45,536 nucleotides of DNA from Escherichia phage vB_EcoS_WFI. Below are positions 32,893-45,157 of the stretch, one piece after another. Under the pieces are notes generated by a model, which did not search any database, was not told the origin of the DNA, and saw only the letters and a list, made by a program, of their open reading frames with translations. Location of the stretch: the sequence record NC_073058.1; one strand, 5' to 3'. A program made the position numbers and the translations under genes. Each line of letters opens with the position of its first letter. Position 1 is the stretch's first letter.

Positions 32893-33584
32893 TTTAAATT
32901 TTCCTCATTGACTGCTATTGCGAAGCCGCGCGGAGTGAGCGACCGGATTAATTTGGTGCGGGCAGATTTGCCACCGAGGCGACTATACTGCTTCGAGTAC
33001 CCTTTTTCAACGAATACCGGCTTTTTCTCCGGCATACGAAAGCCATTGCCGGTCCATAAACAGGTCAGCTTTGGATATGAATCGCGGTCGTTGATGTATT
33101 CCGGGAACAACGGATGTACGTCATCCTCCGGCAGATAGCCGCCATACTCCCACGGATCAAACGAGTGGTCTGGCTTGCGCCACTGGGTGGATAGCACACT
33201 GCGCGGATTCTCAATCATATATGGCACTTCAAAGAAGTCACCCAGGTAAGCGGCAATCTTCGCGGTGCGCACTGCCTTAAGCTGAAAGGCGGGGTCTTTC
33301 GCACGCTTGCACGGGAAAGCTGGCGCACCGCTCACCGCCAGATCCGTACACGGCGGAAACGCGTAGATAATATCCGGCGTGCCGAAATCGCCATTCATCG
33401 CGCGGTCCACGAAGTCCAGATCGATAAACTCGTTACGATAGCGGATACCGCGACCATAAATCCGGTAGTCAAGGTAAGACCCGTGATCGGCTTCCGAGTA
33501 GTTGAAACAGTAGCATTTATGCCCCATCTCGGCAGCGCGCTCTATCATCAAGCCGCTGCCGTCAAATAATGACCAGATAATCAC
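32889..33584 (-). CDS. short C5-cytosine methyltransferase-like protein (no obvious target-recognition domain)
   Basis: Motif I-like LFDGSG, PC motif FPPCTD, ENV-like MIENP; only 231 aa. Confidence 0.5.
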   Translation of the reverse strand: MIIWSLFDGSGLMIERAAEMGHKCYCFNYSEADHGSYLDYRIYGRGIRYRNEFIDLDFVDRAMNGDFGTPDIIYAFPPCTDLAVSGAPAFPCKRAKDPAFQLKAVRTAKIAAYLGDFFEVPYMIENPRSVLSTQWRKPDHSFDPWEYGGYLPEDDVHPLFPEYINDRDSYPKLTCLWTGNGFRMPEKKPVFVEKGYSKQYSRLGGKSARTKLIRSLTPRGFAIAVNEENLK

Positions 33585-35005
33585 TTGCGCACCTTCTTAG
33601 CTTTCATGTATTCCATCAAGTCGTCCTGGATGTCGCGCTTACCATCGCGGCGGTCCGCCACCAGTTCGTCCAGTGTCCCGCGTGCCTGGATAATATAGAC
33701 GAATACCGGTCGAGGGTGCCCGGCTTGCATCTGGCGAACTGGCCCGATACGCTCCACGATCTGCGCAAAGTGCTCATAGTTCCACGTATCCGAGAAGATA
33801 GCCAGGTGATGACCGCCGTCCTGCAAGTTAAGGCCGTGACCAGCCGATGCCGGGTGTGCGAACATGATGGGAATCTCGCCCCTGTTCCACGCTTCCATAT
33901 CCTTATTGCCCTGCTTACCCTTACCCATCGCAACGCCGTGGGGAAACTTCTTCTTCAGACGTGCCAGGTCGTGCTTGTACTGGTACGCAACGAGCAACGG
34001 CGCTCCGTTCAACTCCTCTACGATACTTTCCAGCGCGTCCAGCTTGGCGTCGTGAATCTTCTCCCACTCGTCGGTCCGCTCTCCGTCTTCGTCCACCTTA
34101 TACACGGCACCGGATGCAAGCTGAAGGCACTTGATGGTCTTAGCCGCAGCGTTCGCCGCTTCCACTGTTCCGCTTTCCAGTTCGGCAAATAGCTCACTCT
34201 CAAACTGGTCATAAATCTTGCGGGCTTTCTTCGGCAGGTCCACGACAACCGGCGTGTAGATTGGCTTGTCACATCCGAAGTATTCAGCCGCGTCCACGGT
34301 AAGGGATACATCGGACAGGCGCTGTTGGATCTCCTTCTCGGAGTTCTTTAGCGGGGCGTGCTGCATAGTGAAGCTGCCTGGCTTAACAGGCTTGCTAATA
34401 AACCAGCGATCGGTGAATGCCTTATAGCTACTGCCGAGGCGTTCGCCACCGTCGACAAACCACGTCTGACCCCATAAGTCTTTTAGCCCGTTTGGCGCTG
34501 GTGTGCCGGTAAGGTTAATCCAGCGCTTGACGTGTTTATGTGCAATCGCTGCCAGTGCGCGGGCGCGCTTGCTCCCCTGCTTGCTACGATAGCCTTTCAG
34601 CTTAGTCGATTCATCGGCAACAACCACCGTAAAGGGCCACGCATCGCCGTAATAGTCGACCAGCCACTCAACCACATCGTAGTTAACACAAACCACGTTA
34701 GCGTCGCTCTCAAGCGCGGCTATGCGGTCCTTCTCTGGTCCAGTGCCGTCTACGACCAGCAGGGATGAGAACCGCCATTTCTCCTGTTCCGGGGGCCATG
34801 TGCCGGAGGCAACGCGTAGCGGGGCCAGCACCAGTACGCGGTCCTCCTGGTTGGACAGGATGCCAGTCTGGAACATTTTGTTTAGCGCCCACATAGTCGC
34901 GCCGGTTTTACCGGACCCCATTGTCGCCCAAATATTGCAGCGCTCATGCTTGAGAATAAACGCGGTTATCAATTTCTGATATTCGCGACGTCGGAATCGT
35001 GCCAT
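33581..35005 (-). CDS. superfamily-2 DNA helicase
   Basis: Walker A TMGSGKTG and DEAD-like VVADESTK; start at 35005 with RBS. Confidence 0.75.
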   Translation of the reverse strand: MARFRRREYQKLITAFILKHERCNIWATMGSGKTGATMWALNKMFQTGILSNQEDRVLVLAPLRVASGTWPPEQEKWRFSSLLVVDGTGPEKDRIAALESDANVVCVNYDVVEWLVDYYGDAWPFTVVVADESTKLKGYRSKQGSKRARALAAIAHKHVKRWINLTGTPAPNGLKDLWGQTWFVDGGERLGSSYKAFTDRWFISKPVKPGSFTMQHAPLKNSEKEIQQRLSDVSLTVDAAEYFGCDKPIYTPVVVDLPKKARKIYDQFESELFAELESGTVEAANAAAKTIKCLQLASGAVYKVDEDGERTDEWEKIHDAKLDALESIVEELNGAPLLVAYQYKHDLARLKKKFPHGVAMGKGKQGNKDMEAWNRGEIPIMFAHPASAGHGLNLQDGGHHLAIFSDTWNYEHFAQIVERIGPVRQMQAGHPRPVFVYIIQARGTLDELVADRRDGKRDIQDDLMEYMKAKKVRK

Positions 35006-35009
35006 ATCT

Positions 35010-35234
35010 TTATTCCGCCTTTTTCCAGACTTCGGTTTCACTGTTCCAATTCCTCTTTGTGGCGTCGTAGTTGGTGGCGTGTCCAATGTGCACACCGGTC
35101 GCGCGGAAGCTCTTAAACTTCTGCCAGCACACTGTCAACGGCAGCGGGTAATTCATGCCTGCGATAAACCATACGCGATCGCCAGGTTTGCACTCTCCCA
35201 GCTTGGTGAGTCGGTAATGTTCTTTCATCGTCAT
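35010..35234 (-). CDS. hypothetical protein (74 aa)
   Basis: ORF track; tight spacing. Confidence 0.4.
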   Translation of the reverse strand: MTMKEHYRLTKLGECKPGDRVWFIAGMNYPLPLTVCWQKFKSFRATGVHIGHATNYDATKRNWNSETEVWKKAE

Positions 35235-35270
35235 GCCTCCAAAAATGGCGGGACAAGCCCGCCGTATTGA

Positions 35271-35444
35271 TTATTCTTGTTCTGCGCGATAGCGGCGCTG
35301 CCGATCACGTTCTTTCTTATTGCGGCACGATTTGCACTCGGCCCGATGCCCGTCTGGACTGCGCGCAGTCTTTCCGGTGTATTTGTGGAACTGGGATAGC
35401 GGCTTGATGCATCCGCAATTACTACAACGTTTTTCTTCAATCAT
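35271..35444 (-). CDS. small zinc-ribbon protein (57 aa)
   Basis: CSNCGC...CKSCRNKKER; RBS GAGGA. Confidence 0.45.
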   Translation of the reverse strand: MIEEKRCSNCGCIKPLSQFHKYTGKTARSPDGHRAECKSCRNKKERDRQRRYRAEQE

Positions 35445-35484
35445 TTCTAAAATCCTCGATAGGGCTAACCGGCACACTATACCG

Positions 35485-35763
35485 CTACGCGACCAATTCA
35501 GCAACCAATAAATCGCAGTCGGCTATGTTGTCAATAACGCGAACGTCAGCACCGCGGCGGGCCATTCGCTCATGTTCTCGCACCTGGTGCGGCTTCGGTT
35601 TTCCTCCGGGGCGCTTCACTTCGACGAATACTATGATGCCGTTGATGATAATAATCAGGTCGGGCGCACCTGCGCGCCCCTCCCATGCCAGCTTGCGGCA
35701 GAATCCGCCAACCTCTTTCACCCGTCGCATCAGGTGACTTTGAATATTGCCTTCTGGTGTCAT
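35485..35763 (-). CDS. VRR-NUC domain nuclease
   Basis: Motifs PDLIII..G.IVFVEVKRPGGK. Confidence 0.6.
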   Translation of the reverse strand: MTPEGNIQSHLMRRVKEVGGFCRKLAWEGRAGAPDLIIIINGIIVFVEVKRPGGKPKPHQVREHERMARRGADVRVIDNIADCDLLVAELVA

Positions 35764-35951
35764 TTGGTTTGCAACTCCACGTTACGCAGACGTAGATCTA
35801 CCGGTATGTCAGATCTACCGGTTAGCGCCAGCGCCAGGTTTTCAGGCGTGACAAGTGCCGTGATGGTCTTGCCACGTTCCAGTCTAAGGACGATGCGAAT
35901 CTCGTCATCGTCCGTCGCGCCAGCGCGCATTATGCTTAATTCTGCTTTCAT
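35760..35951 (-). CDS. hypothetical protein (63 aa)
   Basis: ORF track, start trimmed to ATG 35951. Confidence 0.35.
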   Translation of the reverse strand: MKAELSIMRAGATDDDEIRIVLRLERGKTITALVTPENLALALTGRSDIPVDLRLRNVELQTK

Positions 35952-35955
35952 AATC

Positions 35956-38247
35956 TTACTTCCTGTACCGATACATAATGTCGCCTTCGGCGGCAAGTGG
36001 GAAACCTTTCGCCCATATAGGCAGGTCACACATCAGCGCGCAAAGCTCCTCGGTCGTGTAATCGTCGGTGTCCGGCACTTCGGTGATCAATTCATCGTGC
36101 ACTGACAGGACGATTTCATAGCCCGCAGCTTCAACACCAGGCATGGACCATGCGAGAATATCGCGGCACAACGCCTGTACGATGTTCTCCGTAAGTTTGC
36201 CGCCGTAGGTGTACTGGAATCCCCACTGGCGCGTCGTCTGATTCTCGCCCTGGTATTTGATGCGGGTACTGGTGCGCTTCTTGCCGGTGTCTTCGTCAAT
36301 CTCGGTAGTGACAGACAGCGCGATTCCGGGGTAGCTCATGATTCGCCCTGACGGCAACTCAACCTTCAGCCACCAGCCCGCGGCGTTCGGGTCGTCGCGT
36401 TCCTCGTCAAAGGTGGGGTCGTGCTTCGCCTTCGTGCGCACAATCTTGAGCGCTTTCTTGCCATCCGGGCGAACGTTCGCGCCAGCCCAGTATGCCTTAC
36501 CTGGATTGCGTATCGCACATAACACCGCCTCCTCAAGCTCGGCCCAAAAGGCTACGGTCTTCGGGTGAGATTCACGCCACATACGTTTGATCGCGTCGCA
36601 GGTCAACCACACGTTTTTAGGCAGTATGTAAGTCGGGCGCTCGTCTTTCTTGCCGGGCTTCGGCGGGCGCTTCGCTTCGTTGATGCGGGCAAACTCATAA
36701 CCGCGTTTAGCCGCCGCCCAAATATGATCGGGGAATGTTCCCTTCATGACGTCAGCCATTGCGTACAGGTCGAGGCCCAGGTTTTTAGCAAACTGCAAGA
36801 ACGCCGCGACGCCGCCACCATAGCCCAGTCCCAATTCACACGCCTTACCAATCTGGCGTAGGTCTTTGCGGTTGGCTTTGATGTAGTCCGGGTCAAGGCC
36901 AAACATCTTACCGGCAGTTTCACAATAGATATCGCGTCCGGCCTTAAACACCATAAGCGCGGTTTTCTCGCCAGCGATCCAGGCAAGGCCACGCCCTTCC
37001 ACGTTGGAGTAGTCCGCTACAACAAACTTCTTGCCCTTAGCCGGGATAATGCACCCGCGAACGGTCGAGGCGGTTAGCTTCGATATGTCATACGCCCAGT
37101 GCGCGGTCCCGCGTAACAGGGAGTTGATGCCGTTGGTGAGCATGTGCGACCGTACCCAAAACGAGACGTCGCTCTCACCTTCGCGGCGCTTAATCTTCCC
37201 TTCGTGGTCATCACTGTACTCGCCACGTGCCAGGTTTTGAGGCTGAAAGCCTTTACCGGCCCAGCGTAGTGTGCGCTTTGCCCCACCATACTGAAGACAA
37301 CCACGGCGGCGACCATCGGCAGAAAGACCATTGACGAGCGGATTGTATTTAGTCGATGCCGTTGATGACGCGCCGAGGCGCATTTCAATAAGCACTTTGC
37401 CCTCGTCGGGGAAGTCTGGATCTTCCAGCAAGTCATTCAGCGTGGATTTCTGCGCGTTGTGAATGGTGAACGCCGGGGCAATATCACGCAGGATTGGCAG
37501 GAAGTCATTACCGGTCAGTTTACCGCCGAACAGTTCCCAGGCTTCTTCCTTCAATTCTTCTTTGTGCACCTGCACCGCCTTGATCGCGGCGTTCGCCAGG
37601 TCAACGTCCACATAGAAGCCACGGTCGTTAATCAACTGGTCGATACGCAGGATTTCATCTTCCTTCGGTGAGTTGCCCCAGTCCGGTATTCGCCAGTAGA
37701 CTTCACGCATTGCGATAATATCCAGCGCGGCATAGCGCAGGAATTTAGCCCATTCTTCAGGGTGAGTCTCGCGCGTGTAGCGGCGGATTTTGTAGGTCTT
37801 AGGGGTCGGCTTACAAAATCGCTTAATCAGCGCCTTGCCTGCCTTATCCTTCGCGTGCTCTGCGTCAACGCCCAGCACCTGGCATTGCATATCGAGGCCA
37901 CCCGGCAGCGCGTGACGAAAGGCCATAATCATCGTATCTTCGATCTGGCTTACCGGCAGGTCGATGCCCCACTTTTCACGGATAACCAGGCGGTCAAACA
38001 GGAGGCCGTTAGCCATCACTATTTTTGCTTTCTTGCGGGTTACCTGGCGTAGCGCCTTGCGCAGTTCACGCGGCATCGTGGGGGATTCAGTGGCGTCCCA
38101 TGTCTGCACGCGGCCCTCGTCGATGGCGTAGGTGCAAATCATAATCTCGGTGGATGGGTGTTCTGCATAGGCATACGCACCTGCTTTCTTCAGGTCCACC
38201 CCGCTATATGTCTCGGTGTCAAGAAACAGGCGTTCGAAGTCTTTCAT
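35956..38247 (-). CDS. DNA polymerase I (family A) with 3'-5' exonuclease domain
   Basis: Exo motif FLDTETYS; polymerase motifs RDIYCETAGKMFG, KACELGLGYGGG, LSVHDELITEV. Confidence 0.9.
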   Translation of the reverse strand: MKDFERLFLDTETYSGVDLKKAGAYAYAEHPSTEIMICTYAIDEGRVQTWDATESPTMPRELRKALRQVTRKKAKIVMANGLLFDRLVIREKWGIDLPVSQIEDTMIMAFRHALPGGLDMQCQVLGVDAEHAKDKAGKALIKRFCKPTPKTYKIRRYTRETHPEEWAKFLRYAALDIIAMREVYWRIPDWGNSPKEDEILRIDQLINDRGFYVDVDLANAAIKAVQVHKEELKEEAWELFGGKLTGNDFLPILRDIAPAFTIHNAQKSTLNDLLEDPDFPDEGKVLIEMRLGASSTASTKYNPLVNGLSADGRRRGCLQYGGAKRTLRWAGKGFQPQNLARGEYSDDHEGKIKRREGESDVSFWVRSHMLTNGINSLLRGTAHWAYDISKLTASTVRGCIIPAKGKKFVVADYSNVEGRGLAWIAGEKTALMVFKAGRDIYCETAGKMFGLDPDYIKANRKDLRQIGKACELGLGYGGGVAAFLQFAKNLGLDLYAMADVMKGTFPDHIWAAAKRGYEFARINEAKRPPKPGKKDERPTYILPKNVWLTCDAIKRMWRESHPKTVAFWAELEEAVLCAIRNPGKAYWAGANVRPDGKKALKIVRTKAKHDPTFDEERDDPNAAGWWLKVELPSGRIMSYPGIALSVTTEIDEDTGKKRTSTRIKYQGENQTTRQWGFQYTYGGKLTENIVQALCRDILAWSMPGVEAAGYEIVLSVHDELITEVPDTDDYTTEELCALMCDLPIWAKGFPLAAEGDIMYRYRK

Positions 38248-38414
38248 TGCTTTATCCTCACTACTGCGTCAGCGCTGCCGATCATGGAGAAGATACCATC
38301 CGACAAGGCAATCTCTTCGCCGTTGTTGCGAATCTCGGCAACGGTAAAATACTCGCCCAGCAATTTGGACCATACACGCATTCCGACTTTTACTTCACTG
38401 GCTTTAATACGCAT
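38244..38414 (-). CDS. small hypothetical protein (56 aa)
   Basis: RBS AGGA; stop overlaps the DNA polymerase ATG (ATGA). Confidence 0.35.
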   Translation of the reverse strand: MRIKASEVKVGMRVWSKLLGEYFTVAEIRNNGEEIALSDGIFSMIGSADAVVRIKQ

Positions 38415-38427
38415 TTTTCATTGTCCT

Positions 38428-38456
38428 AATAAAAAGCCCGCAATAAGCGGGCTTGA
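38428..38456 (-). terminator. rho-independent terminator (minus strand)
   Basis: AGCCCGC-TTATT-GCGGGCT hairpin followed by TTTTT on minus strand. Confidence 0.45.
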
Positions 38457-38472
38457 ATAGTGGGCTTTGCCC

Positions 38473-39261
38473 TTAACGGCGGCGACGTTTACGTGGTGCT
38501 TCGTCTTCGTCGTCGTCGTCCTCATCTTCGTCATCGCGGGACTTTCGACGCTTGCGAGGTTTTTCGTCTTCCTCGTCTTCGTCATCGTCATCACGACGCT
38601 TGGATTTCTTGGACTTGCGCGGCTTATCATCTTCGTCATCGTCATCACGACGTTTGGACTTCTTAGCCTTGCGCGGTGCTTCATCTTCGTCATCGTCGCC
38701 CAGGTCGTCATCGGAACAAGAAGACCCGCCGCCACCGAAGGAGTCACCATCGTCACGGAAGCGAAGACCCATCAAGCCAGCACCGAGACCTTTACCGTTG
38801 GTGTTGTTCCACGCCCAAATATCCAGGGACACGTTGCAATAACAACCGGAATAGATTTCCTGGCCTTCGATCTCGTCGCCGTCGATGGTCAGACCCTGTT
38901 CGGTCTGCTTCTCGCCCAGTGACGTTTGAATGTTAGGCTGTTTGAACGATTTGGCGTTGATGTACAACATGCCTTCGAATTCTTCGGTTACTTCGTCGCG
39001 CTCGTCGCCGTCACGAACTGCGCATTCCTTAGAATCCTGGGCGTAGTGGCGGTCCATCCACTTATCGGCGTTCTTCTCGGATTTCAGCTTGTCGGTAAGC
39101 ACTGCGCGCGCTGCCGCTTCCACTTTGTCCACCTGCGGATCTTCTTTATCAAGAAGAATCACGGCACGGTATGCCGGTTTTTGTCCATCCTGTTTAGGGG
39201 TATCACGTTCCCAAATTTTCAGGAAGCATACTCGTACATTTTTCAGGTTGACTTTAGCCAT
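38473..39261 (-). CDS. ssDNA-binding-like protein with highly charged repetitive C-terminal tail
   Basis: N-terminus MAKVNLKNVRVCF; C-terminus has three tandem units of DDDEDE...PRK.KKSKRR; gene linked to exonuclease and polymerase. Confidence 0.5.
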   Translation of the reverse strand: MAKVNLKNVRVCFLKIWERDTPKQDGQKPAYRAVILLDKEDPQVDKVEAAARAVLTDKLKSEKNADKWMDRHYAQDSKECAVRDGDERDEVTEEFEGMLYINAKSFKQPNIQTSLGEKQTEQGLTIDGDEIEGQEIYSGCYCNVSLDIWAWNNTNGKGLGAGLMGLRFRDDGDSFGGGGSSCSDDDLGDDDEDEAPRKAKKSKRRDDDDEDDKPRKSKKSKRRDDDDEDEEDEKPRKRRKSRDDEDEDDDDEDEAPRKRRRR

Positions 39262-39350
39262 TTCTCAATTCCTCATTTCGCATGTATCGGGGTTATTGTG
39301 AGCCACCCCGTTCGGCTTGGTTGCTAATTTACTTGGTTGCGCCTAAGCGG

Positions 39351-39593
39351 TCAAGCACTTTTATTAAAAAGATTTCGCGTCACGTAGTTGGTGGCGTTCT
39401 CGATCCAGCTTAACGGCGGTCGGTCGATGTGCTTCTCGACCCAATCGACGGCAACGTCGCTGTAGCCATCGTCCAGCCAGCGGGACGGATGGCGAATCAT
39501 CCAGGCCACCATTAACACGCCTTGCACGCAATGCAGGATAAAGCCCAGCGCGCCGAGCATAATCATCAATACGAATGCAAACACCTTATTCAT
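39351..39593 (-). CDS. small membrane protein (80 aa)
   Basis: Two hydrophobic helices. Confidence 0.45.
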   Translation of the reverse strand: MNKVFAFVLMIMLGALGFILHCVQGVLMVAWMIRHPSRWLDDGYSDVAVDWVEKHIDRPPLSWIENATNYVTRNLFNKSA

Positions 39594-41016
39594 TACTTAA
39601 GTCCTCATCAGTAGCTTCAGACCACGCAGGGCGCGGGTCGTCGATTGGTGCCAATACCGGTTTAGCCGGTGCGCGCGTGATTTTATCACACAATTTCGCC
39701 CACACTTTCGGTTTCTCGTCCTTCAATACCTTCTCGGCATCGGTAGGACTGAGCAATGTTTCTTTGTACATTACATCGCGCTTGATCCGGGCCTTCGTGA
39801 AGATTTCAATCACTTCGCTCTCATCCGCCCACTTGCGATTACCTTCCTTACCGGCAACCATCTTGAGGCCCAGCGATTCGCCATCACCCGCCATCACCGC
39901 CTTGAATACTGCGGACTCGATAGCCTTGATGTGCTGACGCATTGCGTCGAGGCCTTCGTATGCATTACGCAGTTCCGCCGCGCTCATAGCGCCATTGGAT
40001 TCTTCCTTATAGCCGCGCTTCGCACGTCGTGCCGCTTTCCGGGCTTCGCGGGCTGTATTGCGGTCGTGGTTGGCGCATTCTTCTTCTGTCGCCACGCTCA
40101 CGTCGTCCGCCAGGTCGTCGTCTGTTGCCGTTGGTGGGGTCATCGTGTCGATGGCGGCCTTAGCGCGGGCACTACACTGATCCGCAAATCGGCACCACTG
40201 ACAGGCGTCAACGCTCGGTCGGAAGTCGGCACGGGTAAGTCCCTTCTTGCCTCGGGAATACGCGTCCAGTGCCGCGACCGCTCGCTTGGACGCAAACTTA
40301 GCGAATATCTCCAGCGCTTCCACTGTAATATCCCACTCCGACGCCCCGCCGCAATACGGCTGGAAGATTACCAGGCGAACGGTCGTAATGTCGTACATGG
40401 TTTGCAGCTTGCGCAGCAGGCCCAGCGCGTACAACATAAGCTGTTTGTTTTCTTTCGCCTCGACCTTATGTCGCCCGGTCTTCAGGTCGCCAACAATAAG
40501 CATGTACGTGCCGTCGGTCTTCTTCATGACCATGACCATATCGGCAGTGCCAAACGTCTTCACCCTGTTGCCGTCTATCTCGAAGCCAGGGTGCAAGATG
40601 CGGGTGAGATCGGCGCGCATTTCAAGCTGGACAAACTCCGCCACTTCAAGGAGCGGTCGCCAGTGGTCGATGTACGCGTCACACTGTTTCACCATATCGT
40701 CGTTGACCAGTACGCCGCCTTTCGGTGCTTTCGGGTGCGCCTTTACCGGCCCCTTACCTTCGTTCTCAACGTAACACCCTTTGTACGTCTTCGCGGATAG
40801 CTTCTTCTCTCCGGCAATGATGCGGTTTAGCACGACTTCTGATACGGTGTGCATACTCGTACCGTTAATCGCAGCTTGCCCGGATTCGTTCGGGATACCT
40901 TTTTCGACTACCAGGGCGGCGGGGCACCCCATCCATTTTTTAGATCCCGATGGCCCGAGTAATGAGTGTTCGGTATTGCTACCGGATTGCGTTTTGCGCT
41001 TTGGTTTAATAGCCAT
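39586..41016 (-). CDS. Cas4/RecB-like PD-(D/E)xK exonuclease
   Basis: 476 aa; C-terminal Cys cluster CQWCRFADQC; co-located with SSB-like gene and polymerase. Confidence 0.55.
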   Translation of the reverse strand: MAIKPKRKTQSGSNTEHSLLGPSGSKKWMGCPAALVVEKGIPNESGQAAINGTSMHTVSEVVLNRIIAGEKKLSAKTYKGCYVENEGKGPVKAHPKAPKGGVLVNDDMVKQCDAYIDHWRPLLEVAEFVQLEMRADLTRILHPGFEIDGNRVKTFGTADMVMVMKKTDGTYMLIVGDLKTGRHKVEAKENKQLMLYALGLLRKLQTMYDITTVRLVIFQPYCGGASEWDITVEALEIFAKFASKRAVAALDAYSRGKKGLTRADFRPSVDACQWCRFADQCSARAKAAIDTMTPPTATDDDLADDVSVATEEECANHDRNTAREARKAARRAKRGYKEESNGAMSAAELRNAYEGLDAMRQHIKAIESAVFKAVMAGDGESLGLKMVAGKEGNRKWADESEVIEIFTKARIKRDVMYKETLLSPTDAEKVLKDEKPKVWAKLCDKITRAPAKPVLAPIDDPRPAWSEATDEDLSNE

Positions 41017-41201
41017 TATTCCACCCTTGTAAACTGGACAATTACATATTTACAGATATTAGCCATTCCCGCCTGTTCGACACGGCGGTGCACTTCATGC
41101 TGCGCATCTATCCAGCACATCGAGGCGTCATGGTTAACAACCATAAAAGAGAAGTGGTCGTTTGTTTTGTGGCAAGTTGCCAGCACGAAGAATTTAGCCA
41201 T
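41016..41201 (-). CDS. hypothetical protein (61 aa)
   Basis: ATG 41201 with RBS GGGAGA. Confidence 0.35.
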   Translation of the reverse strand: MAKFFVLATCHKTNDHFSFMVVNHDASMCWIDAQHEVHRRVEQAGMANICKYVIVQFTRVE

Positions 41202-41452
41202 TATTTCGTCTCCCAACGGTCAATTACTTTTTCCTCCGACGATACGGCAAAGCGAACATATTCCAGATTGGAGTCCGCCCAAATATAGAAGTCGGGGTTA
41301 GTAAATGTGGTGCGCTTAATTTGCGCGGGGTTATCGCGGCGTTTATCTATTACGGCAACGCGTGATTTAAAGTTGCCGGTACGTTCGAATAGCCAATAAT
41401 AAGGGCGCTGGTCGCGTGAATCCACCGCCTCGATTAGCGTGAAGCGTGCCAT
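41201..41452 (-). CDS. hypothetical protein (83 aa)
   Basis: ORF track. Confidence 0.4.
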   Translation of the reverse strand: MARFTLIEAVDSRDQRPYYWLFERTGNFKSRVAVIDKRRDNPAQIKRTTFTNPDFYIWADSNLEYVRFAVSSEEKVIDRWETK

Positions 41453-41462
41453 TGTCTCGTCC

Positions 41463-41494
41463 TCTAAAAATAGGCCCGCAGATTAGCGGGCCGG
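41463..41494 (-). terminator. rho-independent terminator (minus strand)
   Basis: GGCCCGCTAATCTGCGGGCC hairpin followed by TATTTTT on minus strand. Confidence 0.45.
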
Positions 41495-41500
41495 ATAATA

Positions 41501-41626
41501 TTAATCTTCACCGCCGAGTTGTCTATAAACCTCGTCCGGGTCGTCGCCTCTTTCTTCGCAGAAGGCGGTGAATGCCGCCCAATTTTCTGCTATGAAATCG
41601 AGCGTGATTCTCATTTCATAGTCCAT
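41501..41626 (-). CDS. possible small acidic protein (41 aa)
   Basis: ATG 41626; MDYEMRITLDFIAENWAAF...; below ORF-track size cut-off. Confidence 0.3.
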   Translation of the reverse strand: MDYEMRITLDFIAENWAAFTAFCEERGDDPDEVYRQLGGED

Positions 41627-41630
41627 TATA

Positions 41631-42149
41631 TTAATCTTCTAATTCGAAATAAGTTTCGACGATTGCTTTTAATTCCTGGTGGAACTCTTCCACGTCGTCA
41701 TCTTCCAGCTTGGCAACGGATTTAATTTCGAATTCTTCCAGCAGGTCGTCAAATTCGTCGTTTGCGTCGTCGTCATCACCGCCAGCAATAATAGCGGCAT
41801 ACTGCTTGATTTCGTCGCGCATCTCTTTCAGCGGATCGGCATCTTTCTTGCCTTTACCTTTCGCCGGTGCTTTCTTAGATTTCGCCGGGGCTTCTTCTTC
41901 GTCGTCCGCGTCGTCTTCTTCTACGGCTTCTTTCTTAGCCTTGCCCTTTGCTGGCGCTTTTTTGGTCTTAGCCGGTGCTTCGTCTTCAGCGTCGTCATCT
42001 TCGACTACTTCTTCTTTTGCCTTGCCCTTAGCCGGGGCTTTCTTCGCTTCCTGTTTACCAACGGCAGCGCCAGCAGTTTCATAATGCTTAGCGATGGTTT
42101 CCAGTGCTACTACGCCGCGTGTGATCAGGTTTACGATTTGCTCAAACAT
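41631..42149 (-). CDS. Lys/Ala-rich and acidic repeat protein (histone-H1-like repeats, acidic C-terminus)
   Basis: RBS GGAGA before ATG 42149; three tandem units KKAPAKGKAK...EEDDA(E/D)DE; first gene downstream of the strong leftward promoter. Confidence 0.6.
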   Translation of the reverse strand: MFEQIVNLITRGVVALETIAKHYETAGAAVGKQEAKKAPAKGKAKEEVVEDDDAEDEAPAKTKKAPAKGKAKKEAVEEDDADDEEEAPAKSKKAPAKGKGKKDADPLKEMRDEIKQYAAIIAGGDDDDANDEFDDLLEEFEIKSVAKLEDDDVEEFHQELKAIVETYFELED

Positions 42150-42345
42150 TGTATATCTCCGATTGGTTAAGTTTAGGTGTCGGCAGTCAACTTCGTCGGT
42201 GGCCTTAACATAGTGCCAGGTTACGCGTTCTCCCTTTCGGGTAGTGGACCTGGTTATATAATCACGGTTGGGAATCCTGACACTTCGATCCGGCCCCTGC
42301 GTTGCCCCTCTCCAGTTTGCGTCCTGCATCCTGTCGACGGAGTGA

Positions 42346-42375
42346 ATAATAGATTGGTTGCAGGTGGGGTGTCAA
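42346..42375 (-). promoter_or_regulatory. sigma70-like leftward promoter TTGACA-N18-TATTAT
   Basis: Minus strand reads GTTGACACCCCACCTGCAACCAATCTATTAT; about 190-nt leader to ATG 42149. Confidence 0.45.
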
Positions 42376-42492
42376 CAACTAATTTCAAAAAAAAAAGCGC
42401 CGAGGCAAAATGCGACGGCGCTAACCAATAAGAGACAATGAGACGTGATTATTATTACACGCGTGCGCGCCCGTTTCAATATACAAAAGGAG

Positions 42493-42521
42493 TTGACACC
42501 CTGCAATTTTAGGTGTAGTTT
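42493..42521 (+). promoter_or_regulatory. possible rightward promoter TTGACA-N17-TAGTTT
   Basis: GTTGACACCCTGCAATTTTAGGTGTAGTTT; the -35 flank GTTGACACCC...CTGCAA matches the leftward promoter; weak -10. Confidence 0.35.
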
Positions 42522-42552
42522 CGTTGGTCATTAACCAATAGGAGACAGAACA

Positions 42553-42882
42553 ATGCATATCAACGACGCTATCGAAATGTTAACTAAGACCGTAAGCGGT
42601 GAGACAAGCCGGTCCTGGGCTTATACCGATGCCGTTGGTGCGGCGTTATTTGAAATCGAACGCCTGCGCAGTGTCGAAAAAGAATTGCGCGCCAAGCTGG
42701 AATTACTCAACGGTACGGCAGCAAGCAAGCTGCAAAAACACAATGAAGAAATGGAAGAATACAAAAAGCAGGTTATCCGTTTACGCGACGAGGGCAAGTC
42801 CTGGGCGATGATTGCCGAGTTGACCGGAATTAATCAGAGCACCGTGCGCTCCTGGGTACGCAATAATAAAACTTCTAAGTAA
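42553..42882 (+). CDS. HTH-type transcriptional regulator (putative)
   Basis: RBS AGGAGA; C-terminal WAMIAELTGINQSTVRSWV resembles an HTH. Confidence 0.5.
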   Translation: MHINDAIEMLTKTVSGETSRSWAYTDAVGAALFEIERLRSVEKELRAKLELLNGTAASKLQKHNEEMEEYKKQVIRLRDEGKSWAMIAELTGINQSTVRSWVRNNKTSK

Positions 42883-42892
42883 GGCAACGGCA

Positions 42893-45157
42893 ATGAGCTT
42901 AATTAAATTCGCAGTAACAAGACCCGCTAAAAAAGGCGAAAAAGCCAGGGCGGAAAACTTCGAGATGACCACTGATGAGTTTTTCGAATTTATCAATGAT
43001 GCGAAAGAAATCTCCTCGGTGCACATCAACAAGACTGAAGATAAAGCCGAGTATGCGCGCCGCAAGCGTAAGGCCGATGGCATCGTGGCCTATACCAATG
43101 ATGGGTTACGCCGCAAGACCAGTGCGGTCGACCGCTCGATCCTGTTCTTCGATATTGACCGCACCGACACCCGCACATTACGCCGCTGCCGTAAAGCGTT
43201 CACCGACGCTGGTCTGGAGCATGTATTCCACACCACGACCGGCGACCGTCACCCACTGAAAGGCGGCACACGTTGCGCCCGTTTCCTGGTGCTCACTGAC
43301 AAGCCTGTACCGGCTGAAGACCTGGGCCGCGTCCAGTATGCATTGTTAGACCAACTGGGCTTGTCAGATGTGGACTTCGACGATTGTACAAAAGACACAA
43401 ACCGCCTTATGTACCTGCCTCACCAGCAGTCTGTCATAAAGTGCCACTACGGCAAGCGCGCCCGTGTCCGTCGTCTGCTTCGCCTGGCGGATAAGCTGGG
43501 AGTGGAGAAAGAGGAAGTGCGCCGCGAACTGACCCAGGGCGACGACGGCGTGGCGGACGGGATTCTGGATTGGTGCTTCCAGGCTGGCTTTGAACCACTG
43601 TCATCCGGTCGCGGTTATGAAGTGCCTTGCCCGAACGAGCACCTGCATAGCGGCGGCGGGTCGACGGCTATCATGGTTAAGGATGGCGAGATCCGTTTCA
43701 AGTGTATGCACACCGGCAACGAATGCTGTTCCGAACTGAATAAACACCAGCACCTGGCGTTACGTCTGATTGGTATCCCGGACCACTTGAACGTCGAGCC
43801 ACACAACATGTCACGCAAGCAAATCGCCGCAATCCTTCCGGGACTGGACGACGAGGAAGTGGAATCGTGCTATGAACATATTGTTGATGCGGTCGGAGAC
43901 GGCGACGAGTACGGCGAATGCACCGACGCTGACCTGGACAACGAGCCGGTCGCTCTGTTCAGTAAGCACGACCCGATTATCGAAGGCCTGGTCAACTTCA
44001 AATCTACCTGGTATATGGCGGGTGAGTCGAACATTGGTAAGTCGTTCTACGTGCTGGGCCAGATGGGCGCTGTTGCCGCGGGGATTCCGTTCGGTGGCGC
44101 GAAGGTCGTCCAGTCGCATTGCTTCTATTTCGATGCGGAAGGTGGCGAAGCCTCCAACCAGCGTAAGGAAGCATTGCAGATTAAATACGAGCACGACCTC
44201 GACAAGCTGCACATTATCGACCTGCAATCACGCGGCTGGGATATTACCAGCAAGTCAGGCTTGCGCGAGGTTATCAGCTTTATCAACCGCACCGCTAACG
44301 GGGAGCCGGTTGGCCTGGTGGCCTTCGACTCACTCAACCAGACTGTAGCGCTGCGGTCCGCTGATGCCAAACCGTTCGACGAGAACAACGCAAGCGATAT
44401 GGGTGAAGTGGTCAAAGCGCTGAAGTCCATTGCGGAAAATACAGGCGGCAGTGCGGGCGTCATCCATCACCCGGCTAAGGGTGCAAACGGCAGCAGATCC
44501 CCACGCGGGTCCGGCGCGCTTCATGGTGCTGTCGATTCTGCGTTCTTCCTGGAACAGCCGGACGATAATCAGCCAGGCCAACTCAACCTGTATCACGAAA
44601 AATCCCGTAACGGCATCAAGCAAGCGCCGCGTGGCTTCGTCCTGCTCAAGTGCAAAGTTAAGGTGGATCTCCGTAAGTCTGATGCGTTCGAAGCCCACCA
44701 GTCCACCAGCACCGGGCCAGACTTCGGCGATGTGGTTGCCGGTTGGGACGTCAAGCCAATTGCATCCACGCCACGCGACGAGACTCTCTACCTCGTACCG
44801 GTCGCCCTGGCACCGTTCGCTATCGAACAGGCTAAGGCAGCAGGCAAGGCCGCAGTTAAGGAAGAGAACACCGCCGGACCGCGCAACGAGAAAGAGAAGG
44901 TGCTTTATGCGGCACTGGAAAAACTGATGGAAGATAACCCGGACCATACTGGATTCAGTAAATCGGCAATTGTCCGCCAGGCTGGACTTGCGAAAGGTGG
45001 CACATCGACGAAGGCAATTGACGATATGGTGGAGCGCGGCGTGCTCGGGTTTTATACAGATCCACACACCGGGGCCATCTATGGGTCGTCGAATCTGGTC
45101 ATCAAATCGGATATACCCATCACGCTTTCAGCGACCGATGATGACTTAAAAGATTAA
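42893..45157 (+). CDS. primase/helicase fusion (primase-polymerase-like N-domain plus RepA-like RecA-fold ATPase)
   Basis: N-terminal ILFFDIDRTD and HVFHTTTGDRHP; C-terminal Walker A GESNIGKS and motifs VAFDSLNQ, VIHHPAKG. Confidence 0.6.
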   Translation: MSLIKFAVTRPAKKGEKARAENFEMTTDEFFEFINDAKEISSVHINKTEDKAEYARRKRKADGIVAYTNDGLRRKTSAVDRSILFFDIDRTDTRTLRRCRKAFTDAGLEHVFHTTTGDRHPLKGGTRCARFLVLTDKPVPAEDLGRVQYALLDQLGLSDVDFDDCTKDTNRLMYLPHQQSVIKCHYGKRARVRRLLRLADKLGVEKEEVRRELTQGDDGVADGILDWCFQAGFEPLSSGRGYEVPCPNEHLHSGGGSTAIMVKDGEIRFKCMHTGNECCSELNKHQHLALRLIGIPDHLNVEPHNMSRKQIAAILPGLDDEEVESCYEHIVDAVGDGDEYGECTDADLDNEPVALFSKHDPIIEGLVNFKSTWYMAGESNIGKSFYVLGQMGAVAAGIPFGGAKVVQSHCFYFDAEGGEASNQRKEALQIKYEHDLDKLHIIDLQSRGWDITSKSGLREVISFINRTANGEPVGLVAFDSLNQTVALRSADAKPFDENNASDMGEVVKALKSIAENTGGSAGVIHHPAKGANGSRSPRGSGALHGAVDSAFFLEQPDDNQPGQLNLYHEKSRNGIKQAPRGFVLLKCKVKVDLRKSDAFEAHQSTSTGPDFGDVVAGWDVKPIASTPRDETLYLVPVALAPFAIEQAKAAGKAAVKEENTAGPRNEKEKVLYAALEKLMEDNPDHTGFSKSAIVRQAGLAKGGTSTKAIDDMVERGVLGFYTDPHTGAIYGSSNLVIKSDIPITLSATDDDLKD

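Follow-up and report, generated by a model that had tools for sequence, protein, structure and literature searches.

An alternating acidic and basic repeat tail on the gp2.5-type single-stranded DNA-binding protein of Escherichia phage vB_EcoS_WFI

What does a phage SSB (a protein that binds single-stranded DNA) gain from a tail in which acidic blocks alternate with basic ones, and which ends in a run of arginines? The question is raised by the genome of Escherichia phage vB_EcoS_WFI (NC_073058.1), of which we analysed one strand of 45,536 nucleotides, referred to below as the window. It encodes an SSB with such a tail, downstream of a DUF2800-family exonuclease (Table 1). Our best explanation, which we consider somewhat likelier to be right than wrong, is that the protein is the replication and recombination SSB of a Dhillonvirus, and that its tail combines a docking motif with units that act electrostatically.

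The setting is largely familiar. Escherichia phage vB_EcoS-101114BS4 shares 98.6% identity with the region, which has matches in 154 phage records, almost all of them Dhillonvirus; the window is a lytic Dhillonvirus genome. The two genes already carry the labels 'ssDNA binding and annealing protein' and 'exonuclease' in several related records, and a duf2800-gp2.5-polA module has been published for phages of Gram-positive and Gram-negative hosts, the gp2.5-like family being treated as single-stranded DNA (ssDNA)-annealing proteins (PMC8093625). The SSB orthologues of SECphi4 and SECphi18, called Gp2.5-family SSB, trigger the defence system Retron-Eco8, which is escaped by T56P in the SSB OB domain; the flexible C-terminal residues are neither displayed nor discussed in that work (bioRxiv 10.1101/2022.08.27.505566). 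A Dhillonvirus SSB also triggers type III Sir2-HerA (PMC13434337). The identity of the SSB and its module context, as read in a preliminary description made from the DNA sequence alone, are supported by our analysis and are not new. The charge-block tail is apparently undescribed (no relevant paper came up when the literature was searched for SSB tails of polyampholyte or charge-block type), and new here are the tail architecture, its copy-number series and a motif shared with other proteins of the module.

The SSB and its charge-block tail

The preliminary description had called the protein SSB-like and proposed profile searches for it and for the exonuclease. The SSB matches Pfam PF10991 (Enc34_ssDNA-bd, formerly DUF2815) at 111.2 bits against a cut-off of 26 (E 5.7e-32; residues 3-193, profile positions 2-172 of 176), and among the PHROGs profiles it falls into phrog_112, 'Gp2.5-like ssDNA binding protein and ssDNA annealing protein' (E 4.9e-52). 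At the sequence level the PDB yields 4klk, 4jg2 and the Enc34 SSB entries 5odj and 5odk (E 6e-13 to 1e-6). We modelled the protein with AlphaFold2 from an alignment of 89 homologues; the predicted local distance difference test score (pLDDT) is mostly above 90 for residues 1-170 and below 50 for most of residues 190-262. Foldseek matches the model, always with probability 1.0, to 4klk (1e-12), to the Enc34 SSB with bound ssDNA (5odl, 5e-12), to T7 gp2.5 (1je5, 1.5e-6) and to 5odj and 4jg2, whereas classical SSB structures do no better than E 0.4. The searches by profile, by sequence and by fold thus all lead to the Enc34 ORF6 / T7 gp2.5 family, as the description SSB-like had anticipated. The features of a classical bacterial SSB are lacking: the Pfam search gives no match to PF00436, and the tail ends in RKRRRR, not in a DDDIPF tip. 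No NCBIfam model matched either the SSB or the exonuclease.

Binding of ssDNA has been shown experimentally for Enc34 ORF6, with five named contacts in the complex: W150, Y156, R112, Y37 and Y30 (PMC5686142). Three of the five are kept in a pairwise alignment, W150, R112 and Y30 aligning with W149, K104 and F13 of the window protein. Judged by sequence and predicted fold, the protein is a T7 gp2.5 / Enc34 ORF6-type ssDNA-binding protein, ordinary except for its tail; an annealing activity is annotated by homology.

The family's usual tail is short and purely acidic with an acidic/hydrophobic tip, a characteristic of its members and not a criterion of the PF10991 model. Here the tail comprises the last 80 residues (183-262) and consists of four units, each an acidic block followed by a basic one: SDDDLGDDDEDE-APRKAKKSKRR, DDDDEDD-KPRKSKKSKRR, DDDDEDEEDE-KPRKRRKSR and DDEDEDDDDEDE-APRKRRRR. 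With 38 D/E and 28 K/R, the latter in four blocks, it is 83% charged and has a net charge of -10. The charges are strongly segregated: a kappa-like index is 0.58, compared with 0.11 ± 0.045 in shuffled tails, and none of 5000 shuffles reaches 0.58. Tandem Repeats Finder detects the underlying DNA repeat at 38576-38697 (period 54 bp, 2.3 copies, 88% matches, score 188); the DNA of the outer units, 66 and 60 bp long, is more diverged. The preliminary description was right about the charged repeats and the RKRRRR end, and had counted three units in about 100 residues where we find four in 80; the DNA repeat that it had placed at about 38480-38700 is real and close to that position, and the period of about 60 bp becomes 54 bp for the core. 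Alternative-frame open reading frames (ORFs) across the repeat (38418-38756 on the minus strand; 38460-38666, 38467-38922 and 38552-38842 on the plus strand) were set aside as by-products of a stop-poor, GA-rich repeat.

The preliminary description had also suggested checking repeat copy number in related phages. We compared the SSB gene of the window with those of eight further Dhillonviruses, and the number of units runs from one to four: one in welsh (202 aa), two in EP23 (224 aa), three in Sloth (236 aa), CHD5UKE2 (243 aa) and GeorgBuechner (249 aa), and four in SO-1 (261 aa), 101114BS4 and vB_EcoS_WFI itself (262 aa each). Eight of the nine alleles are in frame, and all eight proteins end in DEDEAPRKRRRR. 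SECphi4 has three units and SECphi18 four. The four-unit form is the commonest in databases, where its 90% cluster represents 537 sequences. A crude ratio of non-synonymous to synonymous differences (pN/pS) against six orthologues is 0.07 for the tail and 0.05 for the OB domain, and synonymous change is greater in the tail; because of this, we conclude that the aligned tail codons are under purifying selection and that the amino-acid sequence of the unit is maintained. The idea that net tail charge stays constant whatever the number of units was rejected, as a hand count gives approximately -3, -7 and -10 for one, two and four units.

One allele departs from this pattern. In 101114B2 and 22664B1 (locus L006 of vB_EcoS-101114B2, 739-1554; protein P0005 of vB_EcoS-22664B1), unit 2 repeats unit 1 exactly, and after it a 49-nt deletion throws the sequence out of frame; read on in the alternative frame, the annotated proteins are 269-271 aa long. 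Over the GA-rich repeat, both P0005 and P0010, the 'frameshifted' database proteins, follow the alternative frame. The frameshift is either a mis-assembly of the repeat or a natural allele without the basic terminus.

How unusual is such a tail? When the OB domain alone is the query of a translated search, members of the family turn up in 962 phage records. For an unbiased sample we searched 1.84 billion cluster representatives with the same domain, obtained 2093 hits and classified the best 145 full-length ones. Acid-only tails (median 26 aa) account for 133 of the 145 (92%) and usually end in a hydrophobic tip (...DDIPF, ...DDLA, ...EDFV), which bears out the earlier remark that a mixed acidic-basic tail is unusual. 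The other 12 representatives (8%) have basic blocks. Polyampholyte forms fall mainly into two large groups, an enterobacterial-phage-like group, with one to four blocks and a basic or acidic end, and a second group with two to ten blocks that still has an acidic and hydrophobic tip (...DDDVA, ...DDDDI). A first homologue search had made polyampholyte tails seem near-universal; its candidate step favoured shared words, including those of the tail, and the OB-only figure of about 8% replaces it. The acidic-x-P-basic unit is present in homologues down to 27% local identity, in arrays of up to 12 blocks. A neighbour-joining tree with parsimony, too rough to lean on, puts the number of times that basic blocks were gained or lost at 16 or more, a weak hint of repeated gain or loss.

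Comparison with known systems defines what is particular to the window protein. Enc34 ORF6 (Enterobacter/Hafnia phage; 5odj, 5odk, 5odl) shares its Pfam family, its fold, the order exonuclease-SSB-polymerase, the equivalents of W150, R112 and Y30, and a disordered C-terminal tail that opens with an acidic stretch. It differs in being only about 20% identical, in having two extra N-terminal strands, and in its tail of about 29 aa, purely acidic (16 D/E) and ending in ...WDEDEV, where the window protein has four basic blocks and a basic terminus. T7 gp2.5 (1je5) has the same OB-fold variant and is likewise a replication SSB, with annealing attributed to its family, but is 11-14% identical and has an acidic tail with an essential terminal Phe, whereas the window tail alternates in charge, varies in repeat number and ends in RKRRRR. 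In the Jersey- and Kagunavirus SSBs (for example SE2, K1G and St162) the OB domains are 36-47% identical, the module is the same, and the tail opens with the lineage's form of (S/T)x(D/E)DL and ends acidic then basic, ...DDLEDDEDEAPRRERRRNR. They differ in unit number. Jerseyvirus SE2 and Kagunavirus K1G have a single-unit tail, the counterparts of the terminal unit being DDEDEAPRRERRRNR and EEDEAPRRERRRR, and in St162 there are two basic blocks and the end is acidic.

E. coli SSB also combines an OB domain with a disordered partner-recruiting tail (acidic DDDIPF tip), and its tail and linker drive phase separation, a precedent for self-association through an SSB tail (PMC7584906). It belongs to another OB family, is a tetramer, and has an uncharged Gly/Gln/Pro-rich linker, not charge blocks. 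T4 gp32 carries a basic N-terminal cooperativity segment (the Lys/Arg-Ser/Thr 'LAST' motif) and an acidic C-terminal segment for partner binding and autoinhibition; the basic blocks of the window protein (PRKSKKSKRR) are similar in their Lys/Arg and Ser composition. The fold of gp32 is unrelated, with a Zn-binding core, and its basic and acidic segments lie at opposite ends, not in interleaved repeats.

An acidic motif shared with the exonuclease and the primase-helicase

The exonuclease lies two genes upstream of the SSB, with an 80-aa ORF in between. Its Pfam matches are PF10926 (DUF2800; E 6.6e-67) and PF12705 (PDDEXK_1; E 2.5e-8); there is no PDB match at the sequence level. Residues D159, D177-x-K179 (D177-L-K179), Q192...Y196, C31, C272 and C275 are invariant in five homologues that are 30-57% identical to it, and in an alignment of 38 homologues the catalytic motifs and C31, C272, C275 and C281 are invariant. 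The Cys cluster is formed by C272-x2-C275-x5-C281, at the end of the nuclease domain on the C-terminal side of the core, plus C31 on its N-terminal side. The AlphaFold2 model (mean pLDDT 74, about 90 over the nuclease core) resembles ACE1 of the Cas4 family (Foldseek E 3.6e-6), AdnAB (1.7e-5), RecE (1.1e-4), Cas4 SSO0001 (4.6e-4) and AddAB (4.9e-4), as well as MGME1 and Exo5.

The D...DxK...QxxxY motifs, the C...CxxCx5C cluster and the predicted fold are those of the Cas4/AddB/AdnAB iron-sulfur nucleases and RecE, from which the protein differs in an extra C-terminal region of about 190 aa with an acidic TDEDL end and in the lack of neighbouring cas genes. From motifs and model we read it as a Cas4/RecB-like iron-sulfur-type PD-(D/E)xK nuclease; it is not a CRISPR Cas4, because ORF and Pfam searches of 33581-45157 show only phage replication genes, with no cas1, cas2 or CRISPR association. 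The preliminary description had correctly recognized a PD-(D/E)xK exonuclease and its place two genes upstream; the Cys cluster that it had put at the C-terminus ends the nuclease domain, not the protein. Its view of the pair as an exonuclease plus annealing/SSB recombination module is supported, and with PolA, a VRR-NUC nuclease, an SNF2 helicase and the primase-helicase alongside, the module is equally one of replication. At approximately residues 303-345 the Dhillonvirus exonuclease further contains about 35-40 inserted aa, charged and of low confidence (EEECANHDRNTAREARKAARRAKRGYKEESNGA), which the Jersey- and Kagunavirus homologues lack.

A short acidic motif links the SSB tail to these partners. 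Across the 14,623 aa encoded by the window's 60 non-overlapping ORFs, [DE][DE]DL occurs four times against 0.95 expected, and all four copies are preceded by S or T (0.11 expected): once in the SSB, at the start of the tail (CSDDDLGDD), twice in the exonuclease, at its C-terminus (ATDEDLSNE) and directly past the Cys cluster (ATDDDLADD), and once at the C-terminus of the primase-helicase (ATDDDLKD). The C-terminal exonuclease copy is conserved: [ST]x[DE]DL lies in the final 9 aa of 113 of 120 homologues, with D470, D472 and L473 invariant in the homologue alignment. In the internal copy A297, T298, D299 and L302 are nearly invariant and D301 is invariant across the 38 homologues. AlphaFold2 predicts short one-turn helices at residues 184-187 of the SSB and 470-473 of the exonuclease.

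From lineage to lineage the partners' copies of the motif change in step, as seen in K1G, SE2, St162, Scapp, 611R5 and Enc34. In K1G the exonuclease ends in ...SEEDLE and the helicase/primase in ...TEEDLE, with ...VNDLEDDEE... in the SSB; the corresponding sequences of SE2 are TEDDLEA, TEGDLE and VDDLEDDE. In 611R5 the exonuclease ends NDFDDVS...TADLI and the SSB has DDFDDIS...AEALI, and in Enc34 the exonuclease, primase and SSB end in ...DEDDDEV, ...DDEDEV and ...WDEDEV. An acidic tail is also common to the SSB gp2.5 and the helicase gp4 of T7. The gp2.5 tail contacts the polymerase as well as the primase-helicase, and is a competitor of ssDNA for the binding cleft (PMC5686142, PMC10359462), and by this analogy (S/T)D(D/E)DL is probably a shared replisome docking motif.

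Possible roles of the tail

That the tail is selected and not noise is argued by its charge segregation, by in-frame alleles with an identical terminus, by the pN/pS values and by the presence of the units in distant homologues. In the explanation we prefer, the SDDDL at the start of the tail would be a partner-docking element, a component we regard as probable; the motif also ends the exonuclease and the primase-helicase, and the three proteins would compete for, or share, one hub site, most likely on the polymerase. There are precedents for sharing a hub in the acidic tails of T7 gp2.5 and gp4 and, apparently, in the common ...DEDEV terminus of Enc34. The polyampholyte units would be appended past the point where the canonical family tail would end, and that they act electrostatically is a tentative proposal, to which we give a little less than an even chance. 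The acidic blocks, as in gp2.5 and Enc34 ORF6, could occupy or shield the basic DNA cleft and so enforce a preference for ssDNA; without its acidic tail, Enc34 ORF6 reveals a masked binding of double-stranded DNA (dsDNA) (PMC5686142). Each basic block could bind DNA phosphates or an acidic block, whether on its own SSB molecule or on a neighbour. The SSB would then coat ssDNA in a cooperative, multivalent manner that makes strand annealing easier, and the strength of this effect would depend on the number of units, which slippage on the 54-bp repeat would alter.

Several points weigh against this explanation. The docking motif was defined after the sequences had been inspected, and its partner is only inferred; we likewise infer ssDNA binding, annealing, docking and self-association of this SSB. 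Two of the Enc34 contacts, Y156 and Y37, align with N155 and T21 in the pairwise alignment, with W151 and W17 nearby. The low pLDDT of the tail fits disorder without proving it. Phages with one, two, three or four units all exist, so the number of units cannot be critical, and if the 101114B2/22664B1 frameshift is real, the terminal unit is lost there and the basic terminus is dispensable. In Enc34 and 611R5 the exonuclease or helicase tails are acidic in the absence of basic blocks on the SSB; basic blocks are therefore not needed as a receptor, and we dropped the idea that they receive the acidic tails of the partners, since the Enc34 and 611R5 partners share acidic tails with SSBs that have no basic blocks.

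Other explanations fit part of this evidence. The basic blocks could chiefly be a second nucleic-acid-binding element that suits the SSB to recombination, and not to self-association or docking: they would cancel the acidic repulsion, hold dsDNA or ss/ds junctions and make the strands that the DUF2800 exonuclease has resected anneal faster. The classification of the family as gp2.5-like annealing proteins (PMC8093625), the dsDNA binding unmasked in tailless Enc34 ORF6 (PMC5686142), the Arg/Lys-rich termini of all enterobacterial-phage relatives examined and the exonuclease co-transcribed upstream speak for it; yet the tail remains net negative (-10), and in many distant homologues the array ends acidic and hydrophobic, not basic, and we consider this role unlikely, if not to be dismissed. 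We give somewhat less credence to the view that the internal repeats are near-neutral products of slippage on a GA-rich repeat, extra units being tolerated as passengers in a disordered region, so that only the OB domain, SDDDL and perhaps the last acidic and basic unit matter. Copy number does vary from one to four among viable phages whose OB domains are more than 95% identical, the 54-bp repeat at 88% identity indicates recent duplication, one allele has an imprecise repeat-to-repeat junction, and most family members lack any basic block. Against it stand the excess of synonymous over non-synonymous change in the tail codons (pN/pS 0.07), the dominance of the four-unit form (537 sequences in its 90% cluster), the long arrays of like units, up to 12 blocks, in distant lineages, and the fact that charge blocks are never scrambled.

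A bolder possibility, which we rate as rather improbable, is that on ssDNA the polyampholyte tail makes the SSB self-coacervate, so that a membrane-less compartment for replication/recombination would be nucleated in a small siphophage. The slippage-set repeat number (1-4) would then tune condensate strength, and shared acidic (S/T)D(D/E)DL-type motifs, together with charge blocks, would bring in the exonuclease, the primase-helicase and a second charge-block protein, encoded at 41631-42149. Tail length might also record an arms race with defences that sense SSBs (Retron-Eco8, type III Sir2-HerA, Hachiman, ShosTA), as Dhillonvirus SSBs are documented triggers of Retron-Eco8 and Sir2-HerA and the tail is the most variable part of the SSB within the genus. 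The SECphi4 and SECphi18 rows examined in the escape-mutant Table S2, however, show only T56P in the OB domain and one upstream intergenic change, with no tail changes, the terminal unit is invariant, and it is the number of units that varies and not their sequence; we hold this to be very unlikely. Next to negligible is the idea of an OB-fold protein with some role other than that of an SSB, paired with the exonuclease by coincidence. Family, fold and synteny are strong evidence to the contrary, and ORF and Pfam searches of the module part (33581-45157) show no second SSB gene.

Three points might matter beyond this gene. In a sizeable SSB sublineage, including the sampled Dhillon-, Jersey- and Kagunaviruses of E. 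coli and Salmonella, charge blocks and a basic end replace the textbook acidic tail and hydrophobic tip, and assumptions on tail function drawn from T7 gp2.5 may therefore not transfer. This is the SSB of a much-studied phage genus, already employed as a trigger in studies of anti-phage defence. The natural one-, two-, three- and four-unit alleles on near-identical OB domains form a ready-made valency series of charge blocks that bears on SSB cooperativity, annealing, condensate formation and the triggering of defences. The acidic motif common to the SSB, the exonuclease and the primase-helicase offers a concrete handle on how a widespread replisome holds together.

The locus and its neighbouring genes

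The conserved module reads primase-helicase / DUF2800 exonuclease / SSB / PolA / VRR-NUC / SNF2. The DUF2800 nuclease, the DUF2815 SSB and the family A polymerase are adjacent on one strand of the window, with no separate classical ssb in 33581-45157, and the order DUF2800-SSB-polymerase recurs in St162, SE2, K1G, Enc34, Scapp, 611R5 and a metagenomic contig. An SSB homologue of 35% local identity (31-38% in two comparisons), with 9-10 units and belonging to the second polyampholyte group, lies in the order PrimPol / DUF2800 / SSB / polymerase-sized ORF / SNF2.

Table 1. Features of the SSB locus, in window positions
Feature	Position	Strand	Basis
Family A DNA polymerase, downstream partner in duf2800-gp2.5-polA	35956..38247	-	Pfam DNA_pol_A; related records: DNA polymerase I
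Terminator-like hairpin and T-run, about 20 nt past the SSB stop, ahead of gp40 and PolA	38434..38454	-	Consensus pattern match
SSB gene, 262 aa plus stop	38473..39261	-	ORF; Pfam PF10991; PHROG 112; PDB sequence matches
Predicted disordered polyampholyte tail, four acidic+basic units, aa 184-262	38476..38712	-	Charge statistics; pLDDT <50
Terminal unit DDEDEDDDDEDEAPRKRRRR, aa 243-262	38476..38535	-	Last 12 residues invariant in genus
54-bp tandem DNA repeat encoding units 1-3	38576..38697	.	Tandem Repeats Finder
SDDDL, SSB aa 183-187, tail start	38701..38715	-	Motif count; candidate docking motif
OB-fold DNA-binding domain (predicted), aa 1-176	38734..39261	-	AlphaFold2 pLDDT; Foldseek against PDB
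80-aa ORF between exonuclease and SSB, hydrophobic N-terminus	39351..39593	-	phrog_11211, E 1.2e-49, unknown function
DUF2800 exonuclease, 476 aa, Cas4/RecB-like PD-(D/E)xK, four-Cys cluster	39586..41016	-	Pfam; motifs; AlphaFold2/Foldseek
TDEDL, exonuclease aa 469-473 of 476, C-terminus	39598..39612	-	Motif count; homologue alignment
Second TDDDL, exonuclease aa 298-302	40111..40125	-	Motif count; alignment
TDDDL, primase-helicase aa 748-752 of 754, C-terminus	45134..45148	+	Motif count

The terminator-like hairpin was found by a consensus scan and is a pattern match only (8-bp stem with 6 GC pairs, then TTTATT); its position after the SSB suggests that the SSB and the exonuclease are expressed above the polymerase. 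Phage Scapp has an annotated terminator at the corresponding position after its SSB. At 42346-42375 on the minus strand there is a sigma-70 promoter-like site (TTGACA, 18-nt spacer, TATTAT; 11 of 12 matches), upstream of the phrog_3127 gene and facing divergent helix-turn-helix and primase-helicase genes, which is possibly the operon promoter of the exonuclease/SSB unit.

Two small genes flank the SSB. The 80-aa ORF keeps its position in all Dhillonvirus loci examined; a small membrane protein, as its strongly hydrophobic N-terminus would make it, is unexpected inside a replication operon. Between the SSB and PolA lies the 56-aa gene gp40 (phrog_10102; 38244-38414, minus strand), of which SECphi4 and SECphi18 have orthologues. 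In Table S2 of bioRxiv 10.1101/2022.08.27.505566 these orthologues carry an E21 frameshift in defence-escape mutants, listed beside the Borvo polymerase mutants.

The same operon encodes a second charge-block protein, the phrog_3127 product (41631-42149, minus strand; the ORF is callable up to 42329), with tandem acidic/basic units (EDDDAEDEAPAKTKKAPAKGKAKK ...) that arise from DNA repeats and a DEFDDLLEEF segment. Co-variation of its repeat number with that of the SSB was considered and dropped: by eye, it has a constant 2.5-3 units, approximately, across SSBs with one to four. Its Jersey- and Kagunavirus homologues carry a single KPKRKPRK block.

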